18,246 bases of DNA, taken from assembly GCA_964583985.1 (NCBI GenBank), contig CAZOYD010000064.1:1-18246 (forward strand), in the 5' to 3' direction. The position numbers were made by a program, and so were the translations under genes. The stretch comes from an uncultured archaeon (GTDB lineage: Archaea; Asgardarchaeota; Lokiarchaeia; Sigyniarchaeales; SOKP01). Under the pieces are notes generated by a model. That model did no database searches. It saw nothing but the letters and a program-made list of their open reading frames with translations, and had not been told where the DNA came from. Below are positions 1,854-13,966 of this stretch, piece by piece (positions within the stretch are counted from its first letter, which is position 1; every line of letters starts with the position of its first letter).

Positions 1854-4694
1854 TTATTTTATTATAATTGCTGGTCTCCCCGGTAAAGCTTGTTTTGCTT
1901 TTGGTTCCTCGGTTTTTTCTTCATCGATTATTTTGATATTACAATTATATCTTTTTTTTAGAATGGGAATAATTTCCATAAAGAATTCCAGTTCTTCCAG
2001 TGCGTTGATTGGTGCTTTATTGATTTTCCCCAGATTTTTCATCAGATTATTGACAATTTTAATTATCAATTTACTATGGGGCTTGAACTCTTCATTAGTC
2101 ATGAGAATTTTAATGATCTCTTTTTGTTCCTTGGTTTTTGTAACAATATCCATAAATTGTGAGTACAAGTGAAACTTCCATTGAACAGCCGTAATTAGTA
2201 TAATTTCAGTAACTCTTTCTTTTTTAATAATTAAAAGGATATGATTAATTGCATCAAATGTATCATGTAAAAGAGTCCACTTATAATCATTTATCGGAGT
2301 GAGGAGGGTTTCATCATATTCTGGCCATTTCGCTAAACTTAAAAATCCTTTTTTTCCATTAATTTGCCATAATTCTTCAGTCACGTGAGGAATTATTGGG
2401 TGTAACATTAAAATGAGGCTAATTTTACACGTTTTAAATATGGTGTCATTTACCCCTTCAACCTTGTATTTGTTTAATTCAGAAGCCAATTGGATTAGTT
2501 CGTTTATAGCATCTCTAATTTCTATTTTTTCCATGCGGGAAGATACAGTTTTTATTGTTTTATTCAGGTAATATTCAATGAGTCTATCGCGTATTTTTAC
2601 TTCTTTTCTTGTATCTTCAGGATTATCATAAATTAAAGAATATATGTTTTTTACAAATTTATAGGCAAAATCAACTCCTTCATTTGACCATTCTAATCCA
2701 GATTTTGGGCTTGCACCAAATAATATAAAAAACCGTGAAGCGTCTGCTCCATACTTTTCCATAATTCCAACGGGATCAATGGTATTACCTAAACTCTTGC
2801 TCATTTTTACGCTTTTTAAAATATACTCATTACCACATCTTTTGCATTTTTTATCGTGCATTTCTGCTTTCATGGCGAAAACACCACAATCTGGACAATA
2901 AGGATGGGCTTTATTAATCATTCCTTGGGTAAGCAACCTTTGAAAAGGTTCATCAAAAGAATGCATTCCTATGTCTCGTGCAACTTTTGTGAAGAATCTT
3001 GCATAAAGCAAATGTAATATTGCATGTTCAACTCCACCTATATACTGATCAACATTCATCCAATAATTTGCTATTTTTTTTGTATAAGGTAAATCTTTAG
3101 AATGGGGATCGCAAAATCTAAAAAAATACCAGGAACTATCTACAAAAGTATCCATCGTGTCCGTTTCTCTTTTAGCGGGTTTGTTACATTTTGGACATTG
3201 AACATTTAAAAAGCTTGTACTTGTTATTAAAGGATTTCCCTTTCCTGTAAATTCAACATCTTCGGGTAATTCTACAGGAAGTTGATCATAAGGCACTGGT
3301 AAAATTCCGCAATTATCGCAATAAATAATTGGTATTGGGCAACCCCAATATCGCTGCCTTGAAATTAACCAATCTCTCAGTCTGTAGTTAACTGTATTCA
3401 TTCCCATCTCTAATTCTTCGAGCTTTAATGTAATTGCTTTCATTGCATTTTTATTATCGATTCCATCAAACTCTTTAGAATTAACCAAAATGCCTTCGCC
3501 CTCATATGCACGAGTCATTTTGGTTATATTTATCTCATAATCAAACGGTTGAATGACAATTTTAATGGGGATGTTGTATTCACTTGCGAACTCAAAATCG
3601 CGCTGATCATGAGCAGGAACAGCCATTACCGCACCCGCGCCATATTCAAAAATCACGAAATTCCCCACATAAATCGGAATTTCATCATTAGTAAGAGGAT
3701 TAATAGCATTCTTCCCTATATACATCCCTTTTTTCTCAATTTCAATGTTAGTGCGTTCAAATTTATCTTGTTTTTGTACTTCTTGATAAAATTTGTCAAA
3801 TTCATTTTCATATTTTGTATTTATAACCCATTCTCTTATCCATGGATGTTCTGGAGCGAAAACCATAAAAGTTACTCCGAACAGAGTATCTGGTCTTGTA
3901 GTAAAGATATCAATTGTCCGTTCTTCACCAACAATTGGAAATTTAATTATAGTTCCTTCAGATCTTCCAATCCAATTTTTCTGCATAATTTTTACTTTTT
4001 CAGGCCAATCTAGGGTGTTTAATCCATCTAGTAATTCCTCTGCGTAGTTTCGTATCTTTAAAAACCATTGAGTAAGAAATTTTTGATCAACATCACTGTT
4101 ACATCTCCAACATTTCCCATTTAGTACTTGTTCATTCGCTAAAACCGTAGAGCAATCTGGACACCAGTTAACATATGATTCTTGACGATAGGCTAATCCT
4201 TTTTCAAGCATCTTAATAAAGAACCATTGATCCCATTTCTATTCATTAATGGAACTCATTAACAATTTATAGTAGTTTGGATCATGGCTGTAAATCATTC
4301 TAGTCCAATCATAAGACAAACCAATTCTTTTTTGTTGTTCCTGCATTTTTTTTATGTTTTTATTGGTCCAATCCTCGGGATTAGCACTATGATCAATAGC
4401 TGCGTTTTCTGCGGGTAATCCAAAGCTTTTATGGTATTTCCCACATTGAGAAATACTATCATAGCCCATAGGATATAATACATTATACCCGTTCATTCGT
4501 TTAAATCGAGCTACTGAATCTCCTATTGTATAATTTCGAAGGTGCCCCATATGTAAACTTCCAGAAGGATATGGATACATTTCTAAGATATAATATTTTT
4601 TCATATTTGGATCTTCTTTAACTTCAAAAATCCGTTTATCATTCCACAAATCTTGCCATTTCTTCTCAATTAATTTATGATCATATTCTATCAT
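1854..4694 (-). CDS. leuS: Leucyl-tRNA synthetase, intron-containing: complement(join(1854..4236,4267..4427,4458..4694)), 926 aa after splicing
   Basis: ORFs 4239..4694 and 1854..4211 are in the same frame and separated by one TAG. Motifs: [14 protein letters not shown] (HIGH), [15 protein letters not shown]1 CPDC...CWRC, CP1 editing FTTRPDT and [60 protein letters not shown] (2793-2807). Removing the two 30-nt BHB inserts gives 237+161+2383 = 2781 nt of uninterrupted frame. Confidence 0.95.
4237..4266 (-). other. BHB-type intron 2 in leuS mRNA, 30 nt, contains the in-frame UAG
   Basis: mRNA CUA-CUAU-AA^A-UUGUUAAUG-AGUUC-CAUUAAUGA-AUAG-AA^A-UGG. Exon helix CUA/UGG, 4-bp central helix CUAU/AUAG, two AAA bulges, 9-bp intron stem with a 5-nt loop. 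Excision converts [16 protein letters not shown] to YYKWDQW. Confidence 0.92.
4428..4457 (-). other. BHB-type (tRNA-splicing-endonuclease) intron 1 in leuS mRNA, 30 nt, in-frame, no stop
   Basis: mRNA GGGC-UAUG-AU^A-GUAUUUCUCA-AUG-UGGGAAAUAC-CAUA-AA^A-GCUU. Exon helix GGGC/GCUU, 4-bp central helix UAUG/CAUA, 3-nt bulges AUA and AAA, 10-bp intron stem with a 3-nt loop. Excision converts [18 protein letters not shown] to GYDSFGLP. Confidence 0.9.
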
Positions 4695-6736: not shown

Positions 6737-7787
6737 GAGTATAATAACGAAAATAACAGAAAATCGAATGAAATGGTCAGATTATGAAGAAATCGTTTCA
6801 GATAACTTCCAACAGATTGATTCTATCTTAAAAATTGCATATAACTTGAAAGTACAATTTTTTGGTGAACGTTTAAAAGTATACGTTCCAAATTATAATT
6901 TTCCTGCTATTAGTATAACTGGGAGTGATTGTAACTTAAACTGTGAACACTGTAATAAAAAATATCTAGAAAATATGAAACCCCTCCTCACTAATAGTGA
7001 ATTAAAAGATTTTTTAATCAATCTTCATAAGAACGGTGGTGTGGGAGCTTTGATTTCAGGAGGGTGTGATCCTAATGGTGCTGTACCTTTAAAACAGTTT
7101 TTAAATACTATTGAAGAAGTCAAACAACAAACTGATTTAATAATCAATCTTCATACTGGTTTAATTGATGAAGATACTGCTTGCGATTTAAAAGAGACTA
7201 CAGCAGATATTATATCTTTCGATATTAATATTGATGAGAAAATAATAAAAAATATATACCACCTTGATAAAACAGTAGAAGATTACAGAAAATCATTGGA
7301 ACTTCTTCAAAAAAATCATCTGAATATAATTCCCCATATTTGTTTTGGATTGTATTATGGAAAAATTCACGAAGAATTAAAATCAATTAAATTTATTAAA
7401 GAAAATTTTCCTAATCCCTCTTTAATCGTAGTAATTGTACTTATTCCTCCAAAAGACTCAAAATTTGAGACTCCAAAACCTGAGGATATTTCCAAATTAA
7501 TAGCGGTAACAAGATTGGTATTTCCTCAGACTGAAATTTCCTTAGGATGCATGAGACCTCGTGGAAGTCTAAAAAGGGAGATTGAACAATTAGCTTTAAA
7601 AGCAGGAATTACAAGAATTGAAATCCCCTCTAAGGCTACTTTACAATGGATGAAGAAATATGATCCAAATGTTTCATTCGAGTTTTATTCTGCTTGTTGT
7701 GCTATACCCGAAAAATATGAAAGGAAAGCCATAAGTAGAGAGGAAGATATAAAATCATATAAATTATTTTTAAGTGGTGAAAAATAG
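6729..7787 (+). CDS. lipS1: Radical SAM protein of the archaeal-type two-component lipoyl synthase (LipS1-like, 352 aa)
   Basis: CxxxCxxC (CNLNCEHC), LISGG, LGCMRP (GC(M/A)R motif) and C-terminal SACCA (CC motif). Overlaps the ligase stop codon by 8 nt. Confidence 0.85.
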   Translation: MNESIITKITENRMKWSDYEEIVSDNFQQIDSILKIAYNLKVQFFGERLKVYVPNYNFPAISITGSDCNLNCEHCNKKYLENMKPLLTNSELKDFLINLHKNGGVGALISGGCDPNGAVPLKQFLNTIEEVKQQTDLIINLHTGLIDEDTACDLKETTADIISFDINIDEKIIKNIYHLDKTVEDYRKSLELLQKNHLNIIPHICFGLYYGKIHEELKSIKFIKENFPNPSLIVVIVLIPPKDSKFETPKPEDISKLIAVTRLVFPQTEISLGCMRPRGSLKREIEQLALKAGITRIEIPSKATLQWMKKYDPNVSFEFYSACCAIPEKYERKAISREEDIKSYKLFLSGEK

Positions 7788-7789
7788 AT

Positions 7790-9199
7790 TTGAGTGAATT
7801 TATTAATCTAATTGCATTAAAAGGAATACCAAAAATAAAACCGGGAGATAATTTAGCAAAGATCATAATTGAATCTGCAAATAAATCAAATATAATTTTA
7901 GAAGAAGGGAATATACTTGTTATTGCTCAAAGTATTGTTTCAAAAAGTCGTGGTTACCTAGTCGATCTAAATACAATTGAGCCCAGCGATTATGCTAAAA
8001 TGTTATATAAGAGTATGATACCTTTAGCAATGAAGGAAAATATTCCTGTGAAAGATCCGCAATTAATACAATTAATTTTAGATGAATCAAATAAATTGAT
8101 TCGAACAAGCCACGTTATGATTGTTGAGACAAAACATGGATTTATTTGTGCCAATGCAGGAATTGATAGATCAAATGTAGAAGGAGAAAATATTGTAACT
8201 TTATTACCGGATAATTCTGATGAAGAAGCAAAGAAAATTACTGACGAACTCAAGAAAATAATTGGGAAAAATTTAGCGGTTATTATTTCAGATTCATTTG
8301 GAAGACCTTTTAGAAGGGGTGCTGTTGGAGTGGCAATAGGACTTTCAGGGATAGATGCAATATTGGATAAGAGAGGTAAATATGATCTTTATGGGAAAGA
8401 ATTGAAAAGCACGATCGTTGGACAAGTAGATAATCTTGCTTCTGCTGCTCAACTCATAATGGGGGAAGCAGATGAGGGATACCCCGTTGTATTAATTAAG
8501 GGATATGAGTTTGAATTAAATGATCAGGCATCTATTAGTTCCATTATACGTGAAAGAAATTCAGATTTATTTAGAGAGAAAGATAGCGATAATGAGATTA
8601 TAAAAACACTAAAGTCAAGGAGGAGTTATAAGTTAGGTTTTTCTTCTAGAGAAGTAGATGAAGAGCTTATTAGAGAATGTATAAACTTATCAACCTGGGC
8701 TCCAAGTGCTCATAATGGACAATTTTGGAGATATGTAATTTTAAAGAAAGGTGCTAGAAGAAATAAATTAATAGAGAGGATGAATGCAAAATTCAGGAAC
8801 GATTTAATAAGTGAAGGTCAATCAGAATCGATCATCAATTTAAAGATTGAAAAAACACGAAATCAATTCTTAAATTCACCTCATTTGATATTACTTTGTT
8901 TGGATAAGCAAGATTTAGAATCATATGAAGATGAAGAACGCAATTTAAATGAATTAATTATGGGAATTCAGAGTATAAGTTCTTCTGCAACTTATTTACT
9001 AATAGCCTTAGAAACTAAAAATTTGTCTTCTTGTTGGTATTGTGCACCATTATTTGCTAAGGAAATTATCAAGGAAGAATTAAATCTTCCAAAATCATAT
9101 GTTCCTATGGCTTTTTTTACAATAGGATATCCCAAAGATGTTCCAAAAACACCGTTTCGCAAGAATTTAGAGGATATTATTTACAAAATTGAAGATTAA
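7790..9199 (+). CDS. cofE: Coenzyme F420-0:gamma-glutamyl ligase fused to a C-terminal nitroreductase-fold domain (FbiB-like architecture, 469 aa)
   Basis: N-terminal CofE motifs (IPKIKPGDNL, IVSKS, HGFICANAGIDRSN, ISDSFGRPFRRG, DNLASAAQLIMGEADEGYPVVLIKG). From about 8594 a nitroreductase domain (KSRRSYK, WAPSAHNGQFWRY, SCWYCAP, IGYP). TTG start preceded by GGTGA. Confidence 0.9.
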   Translation: MSEFINLIALKGIPKIKPGDNLAKIIIESANKSNIILEEGNILVIAQSIVSKSRGYLVDLNTIEPSDYAKMLYKSMIPLAMKENIPVKDPQLIQLILDESNKLIRTSHVMIVETKHGFICANAGIDRSNVEGENIVTLLPDNSDEEAKKITDELKKIIGKNLAVIISDSFGRPFRRGAVGVAIGLSGIDAILDKRGKYDLYGKELKSTIVGQVDNLASAAQLIMGEADEGYPVVLIKGYEFELNDQASISSIIRERNSDLFREKDSDNEIIKTLKSRRSYKLGFSSREVDEELIRECINLSTWAPSAHNGQFWRYVILKKGARRNKLIERMNAKFRNDLISEGQSESIINLKIEKTRNQFLNSPHLILLCLDKQDLESYEDEERNLNELIMGIQSISSSATYLLIALETKNLSSCWYCAPLFAKEIIKEELNLPKSYVPMAFFTIGYPKDVPKTPFRKNLEDIIYKIED

Positions 9200-9212
9200 A
9201 TTGAGATTTGAA

Positions 9213-10142
9213 ATGAGTGAAGATTTTTATACTATACTGGCAGGAGGGGTGGGTGCCGCAAAATTTATTCAAGGATTAGTAAAAGTAGTAGATCCAGGCA
9301 AATTAAAAATAATCATAAATACAGGTGATGATATTGAATTATTTGGTCTTACTATTTGTCCAGATATCGATATAATAACATATAGTATTGCGGAAGTCGT
9401 TGATAAGGAAAAAGGGTGGGGTTTTGAAAATGATACTTTCAATTGTTTGAGCATAATAAAAAATTATTATGACGATGGATGGTTTAATTTGGGGGATAAA
9501 GATTTAGCAACACATATTTATCGAACAGATTTATACCGTAAAGGTTTTACAAAAGCTCAAATTACATCTAAAATATGTAAAAAATTAGGAATAAAAGCAG
9601 ATCTCATTCCAATGAGTAATGAATCAGTGGAAACATATATTGAAACTCCCTTGGGGAAAATGCATTTTGAAGAATATTACATAAAACATAAATGTGAGCC
9701 CGATATTTTAGGTATATCCTTCAAGGGTTCTGAAAAAGCTAATCCTATAGTAGGTGTCATAGATTATATCAAAAAGGCAAGAAAAGTAATAATATGCCCA
9801 TCTAATCCAATAGTTTCAATTGGAACAATCCTGAGCGTCAAGGATATAAAAAATACGCTAATAAGTGTAAAGGATAATGTGTATGCCATTAGTCCTATTA
9901 TAGAAGGATCCTCAGTAAAAGGTCCAGCAGATAAAATGTTAAACTTTTTTGGTTATGAGGTTTCATGCGTTGGTGTTGCTAATTTCTACAGGGGAATGAT
10001 AGGTCATTTCATTATTGATCTTAAAGATCAATCATCGAAACAACAGATTGAGGAATTGGGCATAAAGACATATTGTTTTGATACCCTAATGACGAATATA
10101 AAAAAAAAGGAAAATCTGGCGAGAGAAGTGATGAGCCTATGA
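9213..10142 (+). CDS. cofD: 2-phospho-L-lactate/phosphoenolpyruvate transferase (CofD/FbiA), F420 biosynthesis
   Basis: LAGGVGAAKF, NTGDD, ICPDID, GWG, WFNLGDKDLATHIYRT, HFEEYY, ICPSNPIVSIG and VKGPADKM. Start placed at ATG 9213 rather than TTG 9189. Confidence 0.93.
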   Translation: MSEDFYTILAGGVGAAKFIQGLVKVVDPGKLKIIINTGDDIELFGLTICPDIDIITYSIAEVVDKEKGWGFENDTFNCLSIIKNYYDDGWFNLGDKDLATHIYRTDLYRKGFTKAQITSKICKKLGIKADLIPMSNESVETYIETPLGKMHFEEYYIKHKCEPDILGISFKGSEKANPIVGVIDYIKKARKVIICPSNPIVSIGTILSVKDIKNTLISVKDNVYAISPIIEGSSVKGPADKMLNFFGYEVSCVGVANFYRGMIGHFIIDLKDQSSKQQIEELGIKTYCFDTLMTNIKKKENLAREVMSL

Positions 10143-11576: not shown

Positions 11577-12905
11577 TTAATATGCACTCCCCTTTTTCTT
11601 TGCATCTATATACGTTTTTAGTACATTTGTCATCATTTCGTCTGGTCCCGTTGTGATGAGACTAATTCCTAAATTACGAAATTCCCGTCTAAGGATTAGT
11701 ATATGTTCCATCATTTCCTCACTTATTGCTTCAGCTAATGCTTTATCTGTAGAGGATAAATCGATTTCATGAATTTCGAACCAAGGGCTAAATGGATTAA
11801 TGACAATAATAGAATGATTAAATGTAACAAGTTTTCTCATTGCTTGTGATATTTCTTTTACATTTCCTTCTAGATCAGATATTAAAAATATTAAACTCCT
11901 TTTTTGAAACCGTCTAACGAAGTAATCGATAGCTTCAACAATTCTACTCTTTCCTTGAGGTTTTATCCTAGCAACAAAATCTAGAACTTGATAAAAATGA
12001 TCATCTCCGCTTCCTGGTTTTAAAAATTGCAGATTTTTCTTATCTGAATATGAAAATATTCCTACGTTGTCTCTTCGTGTGAGAGCAACTTTGGTTAATA
12101 ACATGCATGATCGAATGGCATATTCAAATTTTGTGTTTTCTATCGCGCCTCCAGCCATGCTATTAGATGAATCAACTAAAATCATAACAGTTACGTCTCG
12201 TTCACTTTCAAATTCCCTCACTATTAATTTTTGAGTCCGTGCACTTGCCTTCCAGTCAATTAATCGAAATTGATCCCCAAAAACATACTTTCTCATTGCA
12301 TGAAATTCGGATCCAAGACCTATTTGTTTCGATCTTTGTATGCCATAATTTAACTGAAGAGAGCGTTTGGATCCAAGAATTTCAATTCTTTTTATATCTT
12401 CATATGGAGGATATATTAAGATATCTGAAACACTATCAGGGATTATTCTTTCAACAGAATTAAATCCTAATCGATCTTTAATGGTTACCGAAAGTGGTCC
12501 AAGGGGATATTCTCCTCGTACTTTGGGTTCAAGAACATAAGAGAATTTAATTAATGCTCTAGGACCTATACGTGTAGATATGAAATTTTCGCCAAGTACT
12601 AATCGAAAAAGTTGAGGATTATAATAATCTCTAATTTCTATGAGGTCAAAACTACCTTTTCCTGTGTTCTTAATTATGACCTTTATATGAACAAAATCAT
12701 CTTTAAATACCTTTTCTTTCTCAAGTTCTCTATGGACTTGTAATTCTTCTATGTTCATTTGCCAATAAAAAAGCGGTAAGCTAATAATAGTACTAAATAA
12801 TAAGAGAATTGCAAAGAAAATAAAAAAGTAATTTACAAATGCAAATCCCGCAGTTAGGAAGAAAACTGCGAATAAAATCAATGTTCTACCTTTTCCACCT
12901 AGCAT
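11577..12905 (-). CDS. DUF58 family protein with vWA (MIDAS) domain and N-terminal membrane anchor (442 aa)
   Basis: N-terminal TM pair, RGEYPLGP...DRLG, GSEFHAMRKYVFGDQFRLIDWKASAR...LIVREFESE, MIDAS DSSNS, and LIFLISDL. Directly downstream of moxR. Confidence 0.9.
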   Translation of the reverse strand: MLGGKGRTLILFAVFFLTAGFAFVNYFFIFFAILLLFSTIISLPLFYWQMNIEELQVHRELEKEKVFKDDFVHIKVIIKNTGKGSFDLIEIRDYYNPQLFRLVLGENFISTRIGPRALIKFSYVLEPKVRGEYPLGPLSVTIKDRLGFNSVERIIPDSVSDILIYPPYEDIKRIEILGSKRSLQLNYGIQRSKQIGLGSEFHAMRKYVFGDQFRLIDWKASARTQKLIVREFESERDVTVMILVDSSNSMAGGAIENTKFEYAIRSCMLLTKVALTRRDNVGIFSYSDKKNLQFLKPGSGDDHFYQVLDFVARIKPQGKSRIVEAIDYFVRRFQKRSLIFLISDLEGNVKEISQAMRKLVTFNHSIIVINPFSPWFEIHEIDLSSTDKALAEAISEEMMEHILILRREFRNLGISLITTGPDEMMTNVLKTYIDAKKKGSAY

Positions 12906-12985
12906 TTACATCTCCAACATGGAATTTAAGATTTTACCGCTTTTCAATTGAATTACATTATTTTATTATTTTTTTAAAAAAAAAT

Positions 12986-13966
12986 TTAAATTGGAACTGG
13001 AATATCTTCTACTATTGATCGAAGCACCGATTTTGCATCTAAACCTTCAAGTTCACTTTCTGCTTTTAACATTATTCGATGGTTAAGAGCAGGTATGATG
13101 AGGGCTCTAACATCATCCGGTGTGACATAAGTACGTCCAAGAATTGCTGCTCGTGCTTTAGCGGTTTTCATTATCGTAAGTGAGGCTCGAGGTCCACACC
13201 CTAATGCAATTTGTGGATGATTTCGTGTTTTAATTATTATGTCCCTAACATATTTCAGGATTCTTTCATCAATATAGACCAGATTCATAATTTTTTGAGC
13301 TGCCAACAGTTCTTCAGCATTGGTGATGACATCTAGTGAGGGCATATCTCCTGATATTTGTCTCCTCATAATTTCTACCTCTTCATCTATTTCGGGATAA
13401 TCTAGCCAAAGTTTAAATAAGAAACGGTCTATTTGTGCTTCTGGTAAGGGGTAAGTACCTTCCATTTCAACGGGGTTCTCTGTTGCAATGACAATAAAAG
13501 GTTTAACTAATTCAAGCGTTTGACCTTCAATAGTTACTTGTCGTTCAGCCATAGCTTCTAAAAGTGCTGATTGAGTTTTTGGAGCACTTCTATTTATTTC
13601 ATCAGCTAGTACAACATTGGCAAAAATCGGACCTTTTTGAAGGACAAATGCACCTTCATTCTGATCAAATATTTTTGTACCTGTTATATCAGAAGGTAAT
13701 AAATCGGGGGTAAATTGAACGCGTTTGAAAGAGATCCCTAAAGTTTTGGCAAAAGATTTAGCCATGACAGTTTTACCCAAACCTGGAACACCTTCAAGGA
13801 GAACGTGTCCATTAACCAAGAGAGCTATGAAAAGTTGCTGAAGAATTTCTCCATTACCGACAATCACTCGACTTACTTCACTTAAAACCTCTTGTGCTAT
13901 TGATCTAATAGAACTTACATCCAATTCTTCTCTTTCATAATACTTTGCTTTATCTGGAGCTTCCAT
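12986..13966 (-). CDS. moxR: MoxR family AAA+ ATPase (326 aa)
   Basis: Walker A GVPGLGKT, RVQFTPDLLPSDITG, Walker B VLADEINR, QSALLEAMAERQVT and NPVEMEGTYPLPEAQIDRF. Confidence 0.96.
   Translation of the reverse strand: MEAPDKAKYYEREELDVSSIRSIAQEVLSEVSRVIVGNGEILQQLFIALLVNGHVLLEGVPGLGKTVMAKSFAKTLGISFKRVQFTPDLLPSDITGTKIFDQNEGAFVLQKGPIFANVVLADEINRSAPKTQSALLEAMAERQVTIEGQTLELVKPFIVIATENPVEMEGTYPLPEAQIDRFLFKLWLDYPEIDEEVEIMRRQISGDMPSLDVITNAEELLAAQKIMNLVYIDERILKYVRDIIIKTRNHPQIALGCGPRASLTIMKTAKARAAILGRTYVTPDDVRALIIPALNHRIMLKAESELEGLDAKSVLRSIVEDIPVPI

Follow-up and report, generated by a model that had tools for sequence, protein, structure and literature searches.

Marck and Grosjean reportedly described, in 2003, the bulge-helix-bulge (BHB) introns of archaeal tRNAs and rRNAs, and the cbf5 pre-mRNA of Crenarchaeota is likewise said, from the work of Watanabe in 2002 and Yoshinari in 2006, to carry a BHB intron. 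Short introns are also removed from the HAC1 and XBP1 mRNAs without a spliceosome, with cuts in stem-loop or bulge structures and joining by a tRNA ligase (RtcB for XBP1). Here we describe leuS, the gene for leucyl-tRNA synthetase (LeuRS), in the window, by which we mean the whole stretch of DNA that was analysed, an entire 18,246-bp contig (C64) from the 3.8-Mb genome (31.7% G+C) of an Asgard archaeon (Promethearchaeota, Loki-type). Two inserts of 30 nucleotides (nt) each, I1 and I2, interrupt this gene, and we consider it very probable that both are tRNA-type (BHB) introns, carried by the pre-mRNA of a working LeuRS gene of the bacterial type and spliced by the tRNA splicing endonuclease EndA and the ligase RtcB.

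Within archaeal coding sequences, the papers that could be searched place BHB introns in cbf5 (pseudouridine synthase) of Crenarchaeota only (Yokobori 2009, PMC2738675, and earlier papers on which it draws). The leuS inserts resemble that case in being short introns in an archaeal coding sequence with a BHB at the exon-intron boundaries, in occurring in lineages with a hetero-oligomeric EndA, and in their patchy gain and loss among relatives. They differ in that the host gene is of the bacterial type (TIGR00396) and belongs to the Asgard phylum, that two introns lie in one gene, and that the inserts are stereotyped 30-nt mini-introns, several per genome (others lie in nadE and in the genes for RNA polymerase A' and RNase HII); moreover, the splicing of cbf5 was shown experimentally, whereas that of leuS is deduced from sequence. 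The relation is one of mechanism, not of descent, and the leuS introns do not lie at the conserved crenarchaeal cbf5 site. With the archaeal tRNA and rRNA introns leuS shares the motif, presumably the enzymes, and a host genome rich in interrupted tRNA genes, but its exon context consists of mRNA codons, so that codons supply half of the motif. What HAC1 and XBP1 would have in common with leuS is a protein-catalysed, non-spliceosomal splicing of mRNA, although there the endonuclease is IRE1 rather than the tRNA splicing endonuclease and the reaction is a regulated stress switch. Finally, an mRNA of Haloferax volcanii has a BHB element in its 5' untranslated region (PMC7714728), a parallel to the action of EndA on mRNA that we propose for leuS, except that no reading frame has to be restored in an untranslated region. 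No BHB intron in an Asgard mRNA was found in the searchable full-text literature, and a preprint on Asgard tRNA introns makes no mention of mRNAs (bioRxiv 10.64898/2026.10.13.758758); an earlier note on this DNA, made from its sequence, had known of no description of an aminoacyl-tRNA synthetase gene with several introns in an Asgard-like archaeon, and the papers that could be searched describe no such introns in any Asgard gene.

Position and fold of the leuS inserts

The leuS gene lies on the minus strand at 1854-4694 and is split into two open reading frames (ORFs; 4239-4694 and 1854-4211). It matches positions 1-779 of TIGR00396, the model for bacterial-type LeuRS, with 961 bits, a single TAG lying inside the match, and it contains the Pfam domains PF13603, PF00133, and PF08264. 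The limits of the inserts were set by aligning the read-through translation with 29 leuS genes of the same class, and only two 10-codon blocks were private to the window gene: one between PMGYD and SFGLPAEN, the other, which includes a stop, between PNYYK and WDQWFF. These blocks correspond to I1 at 4428-4457 and I2 at 4237-4266, with 161 nt between them, and this alignment bore out the claim of the earlier note that two 30-nt inserts, 161 nt apart, each fall within a conserved LeuRS motif. There is an in-frame TAG in I2 (4239-4241) but no in-frame stop in the I1 of the window genome, and the joined product of the three exons has 928 amino acids (aa) and no internal stop. The predicted spliced junctions are GGCUAUGAU joined to AGCUUUGGA and CUACUAUAA joined to AUGGGAUCAA, with GAU meeting AGC at I1 and UAUAA meeting AUGG at I2. 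The parts of the gene and of the two motifs, in which h is the exon helix, H the central helix and h' the intron helix, are as follows, in the order of the transcript.

4458..4694, minus strand: leuS exon 1, from the ATG at 4694 to ...GGC TAT GAT (placed by translation, alignment with 29 relatives, and TIGR00396)
4460..4467, minus strand: exonic 5' strands of I1, with h GGGC (4464-4467) and H UAUG (4460-4463); bulge 1 is 4457-4459
4428..4457, minus strand: I1, made up of 1 nt of bulge 1, a 23-nt hairpin (4434-4456), the CAUA strand of H (4430-4433), and 2 nt of bulge 2
4423..4427, minus strand: exonic 3' side of I1, with the third nucleotide of bulge 2 (4427) and the h strand GCUU (4423-4426)
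4267..4427, minus strand: leuS exon 2 (161 nt; placed by translation and alignment with relatives)
4269..4283, minus strand: exonic 5' strands of I2, with the distal GAUC (4280-4283), the proximal CUA (4273-4275), and H CUAU (4269-4272); bulge 1 is 4266-4268
4237..4266, minus strand: I2, made up of 1 nt of bulge 1, a 23-nt hairpin (4243-4265), the AUAG strand of H (4239-4242), and 2 nt of bulge 2
1854..4236, minus strand: leuS exon 3, with the editing domain, the rest of the catalytic core, the anticodon-binding domain, and the stop codon at 1854-1856

Read directly from the letters, the I1 motif has an exon helix GGGC/GCUU (4 bp, two of them G.U), a central helix UAUG/CAUA of four Watson-Crick pairs, bulges AUA and AAA with the expected cut after the second nucleotide of each, and an intron stem of 7-10 bp. 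In I2 the central helix is CUAU/AUAG, both bulges are AAA with the cut at the same place, and a 9-bp intron stem closes a 5-nt loop. The intron helix h' is strong in both (9-10 bp), and in both inserts each bulge lies 3' of its H strand, which is the handedness of an EndA substrate. Cutting after the second bulge nucleotide restores the YYK-WDQWFF and GYD-SFG motifs as they stand in intronless relatives. The strict hBHBh' motif, defined as an H of 4 bp, an h' of at least 5 bp, and an h of at least 3 bp, occurs at 7,702 of about 4.7e8 (position, length) pairs in the genome, a rate of about 1.6e-5, and the finding that the homology-defined ends of two inserts stand in BHB register is therefore far beyond chance.

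The pairing is conserved among relatives that carry the inserts. Across the 11-allele alignment of I1, 95% of cells are in standard pairs, a share that falls to 37-51% if the 3' partners are shifted by 1-3 columns, and for I2, with three alleles aligned, the corresponding values are 95% and 28-53%, with no double changes. The H of I1 is invariant in 11/11 intron alleles, the changes elsewhere in I1 are mostly wobble-compatible, and those in h stay pair-compatible (G-C to G.U). In one allele, L147, two pairs near the tip of the I1 stem have changed on both sides in a compensatory way (U.G to G-C, C-G to U-A). The exon context is also uniform, in that all I1 alleles read GGY-TAT-GAY before the junction and AGY-TTT-GG after it, while in the 26 intronless relatives the Tyr codon is TAC in 12 and TAT in 14, and TCN serine codons are used. 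In intron-bearing G034 and G009b (L055, L056), the residue after the I1 junction is Phe, as against Tyr in the sister alleles that lack the intron. Constraint on the exonic half of the splice motif shows in its codons, with TAT, AGY, and TTT fixed where I1 is present.

Evidence for removal of the inserts, and its alternatives

Homologues of I1 are present in 11 distinct leuS alleles (window, G023, G022, G006, G005, G009 on two contigs, G026, G034, L147, and L151), and homologues of I2 in four (window, G009, also on ENA contigs, L147, and L156); L147 and L151 are JGI contigs and L156 is a Logan contig. Nine of the 11 I1 alleles have TAA or TGA in the loop, the I1 of G034 is 29 nt long and shifts the frame, and every I2 allele contains one or two stops. 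The inserts are precisely absent from about 30 relatives. With the inserts deleted, 40/40 leuS alleles have zero internal stops, which agrees with the proposal of the earlier note that a cut after the second bulge nucleotide gives the very deletion that the protein motif requires. The ratio of nonsynonymous to synonymous substitution (dN/dS) among intron-bearing alleles is 0.08-0.13, and the window leuS is under strong purifying selection. Because stops or a frameshift are found in 10/11 I1 alleles and 4/4 I2 alleles, in a gene that is otherwise intact and has a dN/dS of about 0.1, the inserts must leave the mRNA.

Translation of the inserts as ten extra residues each, or read-through by stop-codon recoding, would be in keeping with two lengths that are multiples of 3 and with an I1 that is open in the window genome. 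We give it next to no chance, as I2 has a TAG, the alleles together use TAA, TGA, and TAG so that no single recoding works, one I1 is 29 nt long, and both sites lie within invariant motifs of the catalytic core.

An assembly artefact was ruled out by independent metagenome-assembled genomes and metagenome contigs that share the gene order of the window, in which radical SAM, lipoate ligase, and radical SAM genes, leuS, a 286-aa ORF, and TIM follow one another, an order repeated on independent contigs. Two full-length members of the protein cluster, P0125 and P0139, were considered as possible transcripts and rejected, because they are genomic alleles that lack the introns and have neighbouring genes on both strands. 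Among 5.8 billion proteins, no full-length protein identical to the spliced product was found, and the nearest were 83-84% identical and truncated at 785-837 aa, as products of intron-bearing alleles would be. In public databases, the intron-bearing leuS alleles are annotated as truncated LeuRS of 785, 820, 837, 852, or 857 aa, and ahead of each entry stands a small ORF of 83-144 aa labelled 'tRNA-synt_1'; mini-introns in leuS systematically lead gene callers astray.

The genome also encodes an archaeal-type leuS (C55:3-1688; 511 bits to TIGR00395, model positions 383-937), which is cut by the contig end, whereas the earlier note had wanted it confirmed that no other intact leuS exists. Such an additional copy is present in 16/23 genomes of the genus and in only 2/16 in other families of the order. 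This raises the alternative that the window leuS is a decaying second copy, redundant with the archaeal type, and that the inserts are debris. We regard that alternative as very improbable: the dN/dS of 0.08-0.13 speaks for a copy under selection, no other stops or frameshifts occur in about 925 codons across 40 alleles, the bacterial type is the more widespread LeuRS of the class (52/60 genomes), and the inserts, whose length is 29 or 30 nt throughout, are structured and conserved. The spliced bacterial-type gene is the lineage's long-standing LeuRS under strong selection, and the earlier note's own counter-scenario, a copy decaying beside a second leuS, does not describe it. Its claim that leuS is essential, on the other hand, is not established, as the organism may have a back-up LeuRS of the archaeal type, and its further claim that LeuRS synthesis depends on the splicing machinery applies to the window copy but not to the archaeal-type copy that is also encoded.

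A third possibility is that the ribosome bypasses the inserts by programmed hopping, for which phage T4 gene 60 is a precedent, or that separate polypeptides assemble into the enzyme. The AAA codon that stands both before I2 and at its end, with a hairpin between, would suit hopping, but in G022 and G006 the take-off and landing codons at I1 do not match, the putative take-off codon is not followed by a stop, the insert of RNA polymerase A' has a length of 31 nt and the same BHB geometry, and the genome encodes BHB-splicing enzymes. As for separate polypeptides, the exon pieces have no start codons or ribosome-binding contexts, and the 161 nt of exon 2 are not a multiple of 3. We hold both versions to be highly unlikely. 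In G022 and G006 the flanks read GAC before an insert of the form U...AAA and AGC after it, so that a single register of removal keeps Asp-Ser, and this register is the one after the second bulge nucleotide.

Splicing enzymes and further mini-introns

The genome proved to hold the enzymes that splicing as proposed in the earlier note calls for, namely two EndA-domain genes (PF01974), on C4 and C3, with 100 and 67 bits and ORFs of 207 and 205 aa, and a single RtcB (PF01139) with 557 bits. Two EndA paralogs are consistent with the broad-specificity alpha-beta type, probably alpha2-beta2. Asgard EndA has been assigned to the (alpha-beta)2 type, in which a loop gives a broad substrate range, and hetero-oligomeric EndA has been linked to pre-mRNA introns (PMC5829648 and its references). 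In this genome, whose completeness is rated at 100%, ARAGORN called only 22 tRNA genes, of which 13 have introns, and most tRNA genes are probably too interrupted for calling; this low count fits the heavily interrupted tRNA genes reported in some other Asgard families (bioRxiv 10.64898/2026.10.13.758758).

We propose that the local RNA would fold so that four exon nucleotides pair with the 3' end of the intron to form H, with a 3-nt bulge on each strand and a 9-10-bp intron hairpin. EndA (two-paralog, probably alpha2-beta2) would then cut after the second nucleotide of each bulge, RtcB would join the exons, and the 30-nt intron would probably be circularised, leaving a 928-aa enzyme that only the doubly spliced mRNA would encode. 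That splicing takes place in vivo, and that EndA and RtcB are the enzymes, we infer from the sequence; in the corresponding claim of the earlier note, the parts that stand as observed are that the inserts must leave the mRNA, that their ends match BHB cuts, and that the enzymes are present.

The same build, 1 nt plus a hairpin of about 23 nt plus 4 nt plus 2 nt, is shared by three further verified introns of the genome, in nadE and in the genes for RNA polymerase A' and RNase HII. These, together with two candidates, are listed below; true introns were picked by homology only (continuity of Pfam profiles and comparison with relatives).

C85:7886-7915 (30 nt), plus strand: nadE intron, which carries a stop and lies between KYGD and GGVD; PF02540 profile positions 143 and 144 meet at the junction
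C2:24757-24787 (31 nt, frameshifting), minus strand: RNA polymerase A' intron, between GHFGH and IELARP; PF04997 positions 73 and 74 meet
C1 ~127,750-127,800 (30 nt), minus strand: RNase HII intron, with a TAA inside, a 9-bp stem, and a 5-nt loop, splitting DEAGR from GP
C123:4513-4542 (30 nt), minus strand: candidate only, by motif fit, in a PurM/AIR-synthase-like gene
C31:34232-34261 (30 nt), minus strand: candidate only, by motif fit, in a VWA/CoxE-like gene

The RNA polymerase A' insert is missing in 29/29 relatives compared, one of them with an exon 1 that is 95% identical, which suggests that this core gene, found in one copy only, acquired it very recently. In the RNase HII intron, the H helix consists of four G.U pairs. 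A separate observation concerns uL11, whose N-terminal domain is in frame only in part. By blastn-short, none of six intron sequences has a second copy in the genome, and an origin from a multicopy mobile element or a tRNA-intron donor was set aside as unsupported, since the same search found no related genome copies. Nor do the introns behave as homing-type mobile introns, their sequences being unique and 30 nt encoding nothing.

Removal of the inserts from RNA by another nuclease and ligase, or by self-cleavage, deserves consideration, given that the canonical motif is granted no strong preference in the predicted ensembles and that EndA and RtcB enter the argument by inference. Yet the cuts fall after the second nucleotide of 3-nt bulges on either side of a 4-bp helix, and with the proper handedness, in no fewer than five verified introns of a genome in which EndA and RtcB are both present, and 30 nt is too short for self-splicing; to our knowledge, it is below the length of any known self-splicing intron. 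We rate this alternative as improbable, and prefer splicing by EndA and RtcB.

Several results nevertheless weigh against the reading of I1 and I2 as EndA/RtcB-spliced BHB introns. The exon helix of I2 is weak, with CUA/UGG (one G.U), an internal loop, and then the distal GAUC/GAUC, and although RNAfold gives I2 a z of -4.1, a probability of 0.93-1.0 for H and h', and about 1.0 for the distal exon helix, the proximal 3-bp exon helix has a probability of about 0. This arrangement might pass as a relaxed HBh' form, which would need a broad-specificity EndA. For I1, the RNAfold ensembles prefer a register with a 3x3 internal loop and give the canonical H only 0.03-0.07, a low score that could reflect the nearest-neighbour penalty on bulges. 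The full canonical motif is drawable and is not the predicted minimum-energy fold, and the earlier note, which had called both motifs fully canonical, was right about I1 as judged by pairing but not about the weak exon helix of I2, and RNAfold favours the canonical motif only in part. In a shuffle test of covariation in I1, the observed number of double-change pairs was reached in 37/500 shuffles, which is not significant, and covariation is weak because the alleles are close kin; of what the earlier note had expected from an alignment of relatives, presence and absence were found, along with the two compensatory pairs of L147, but little covariation. The structural case rests on the slid-register controls and on the logic of stops and frameshifts, not on shuffle statistics. 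The roles of the two EndA paralogs come from a reading by eye, in which one has the Tyr, His, and Lys of the catalytic subunit and the other does not. A metagenome scan for the spliced I1 junction returned distant leuS genes only, and neither transcripts nor junction reads, circular introns, or peptides came to light. Lastly, structure-only scans combined with frame restoration, run with the strict and a relaxed hBHBh' and matching mostly adjacent genes, were no richer in hits than a mirror-topology control (26 vs 30, 75 vs 78, 15 vs 14, and 696 vs 711), and the number of mRNA introns in the genome is therefore not estimable by structure alone. As the motif alone predicts little, the case rests on homology together with the motif.

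Elsewhere in the window, genes of F420 biosynthesis lie at 7790-10142 on the plus strand, where a fusion of CofE (F420 gamma-glutamyl ligase) with a nitroreductase, of FbiB-like architecture, is followed by CofD. At 11577-13966 on the minus strand, a MoxR-type AAA+ ATPase (AAA_3) has as neighbours a DUF58/VWA protein and some large proteins of unknown family, an arrangement typical of MoxR-VWA clusters.

Spread of the introns and what it would mean

On a leuS protein tree (a quick IQ-TREE), I1 is found in at least three separate clades, which needs 3-4 changes, and I2 in two distant clades. Alleles at least 90% identical in protein occur with and without introns (L154 vs L148 and L155 vs L152). 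Where the two alleles of such a pair differ in intron state, identity is 65-75% over the 5' 300 nt surrounding the intron sites and 85-97% elsewhere, while in pairs of the same intron state the drop in 5' identity is smaller or absent; the N-terminal 150 nt are fast-evolving in some. These data are suggestive only, and the patchy distribution could stem from repeated precise loss or from transfer of an intron with its adjacent exon by recombination, readings that draw on the mosaic 5' identity and the flanking codons that vary along with it. Lateral spread between leuS alleles by recombination is possible.

The leuS introns are part of a wider, apparently undescribed phenomenon. We tentatively suggest that Loki-type Asgard archaea may hold a population of EndA/RtcB-spliced mini-introns of about 30 nt in coding genes, core information-processing ones (LeuRS, RNA polymerase A', and RNase HII) among them, gained recently and repeatedly, and moving between alleles of related species by recombination with the adjacent exon, although we would not yet favour this proposal over its denial. 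Gene calls are broken by such introns, and annotation pipelines need models of mini-introns. If confirmed by RNA data, the leuS introns would make mRNA splicing a regular step of expression in Asgard archaea, would couple the expression of core genes to the tRNA-splicing enzymes, and would place exon codons under the constraint of having to form half of a splice motif, and they would offer a tractable system for the origin and spread of introns in a prokaryote related to the eukaryotic ancestor. If the broader proposal is true, the closest prokaryotic relatives of eukaryotes would routinely splice mRNA, gain introns, and have codons constrained by them.

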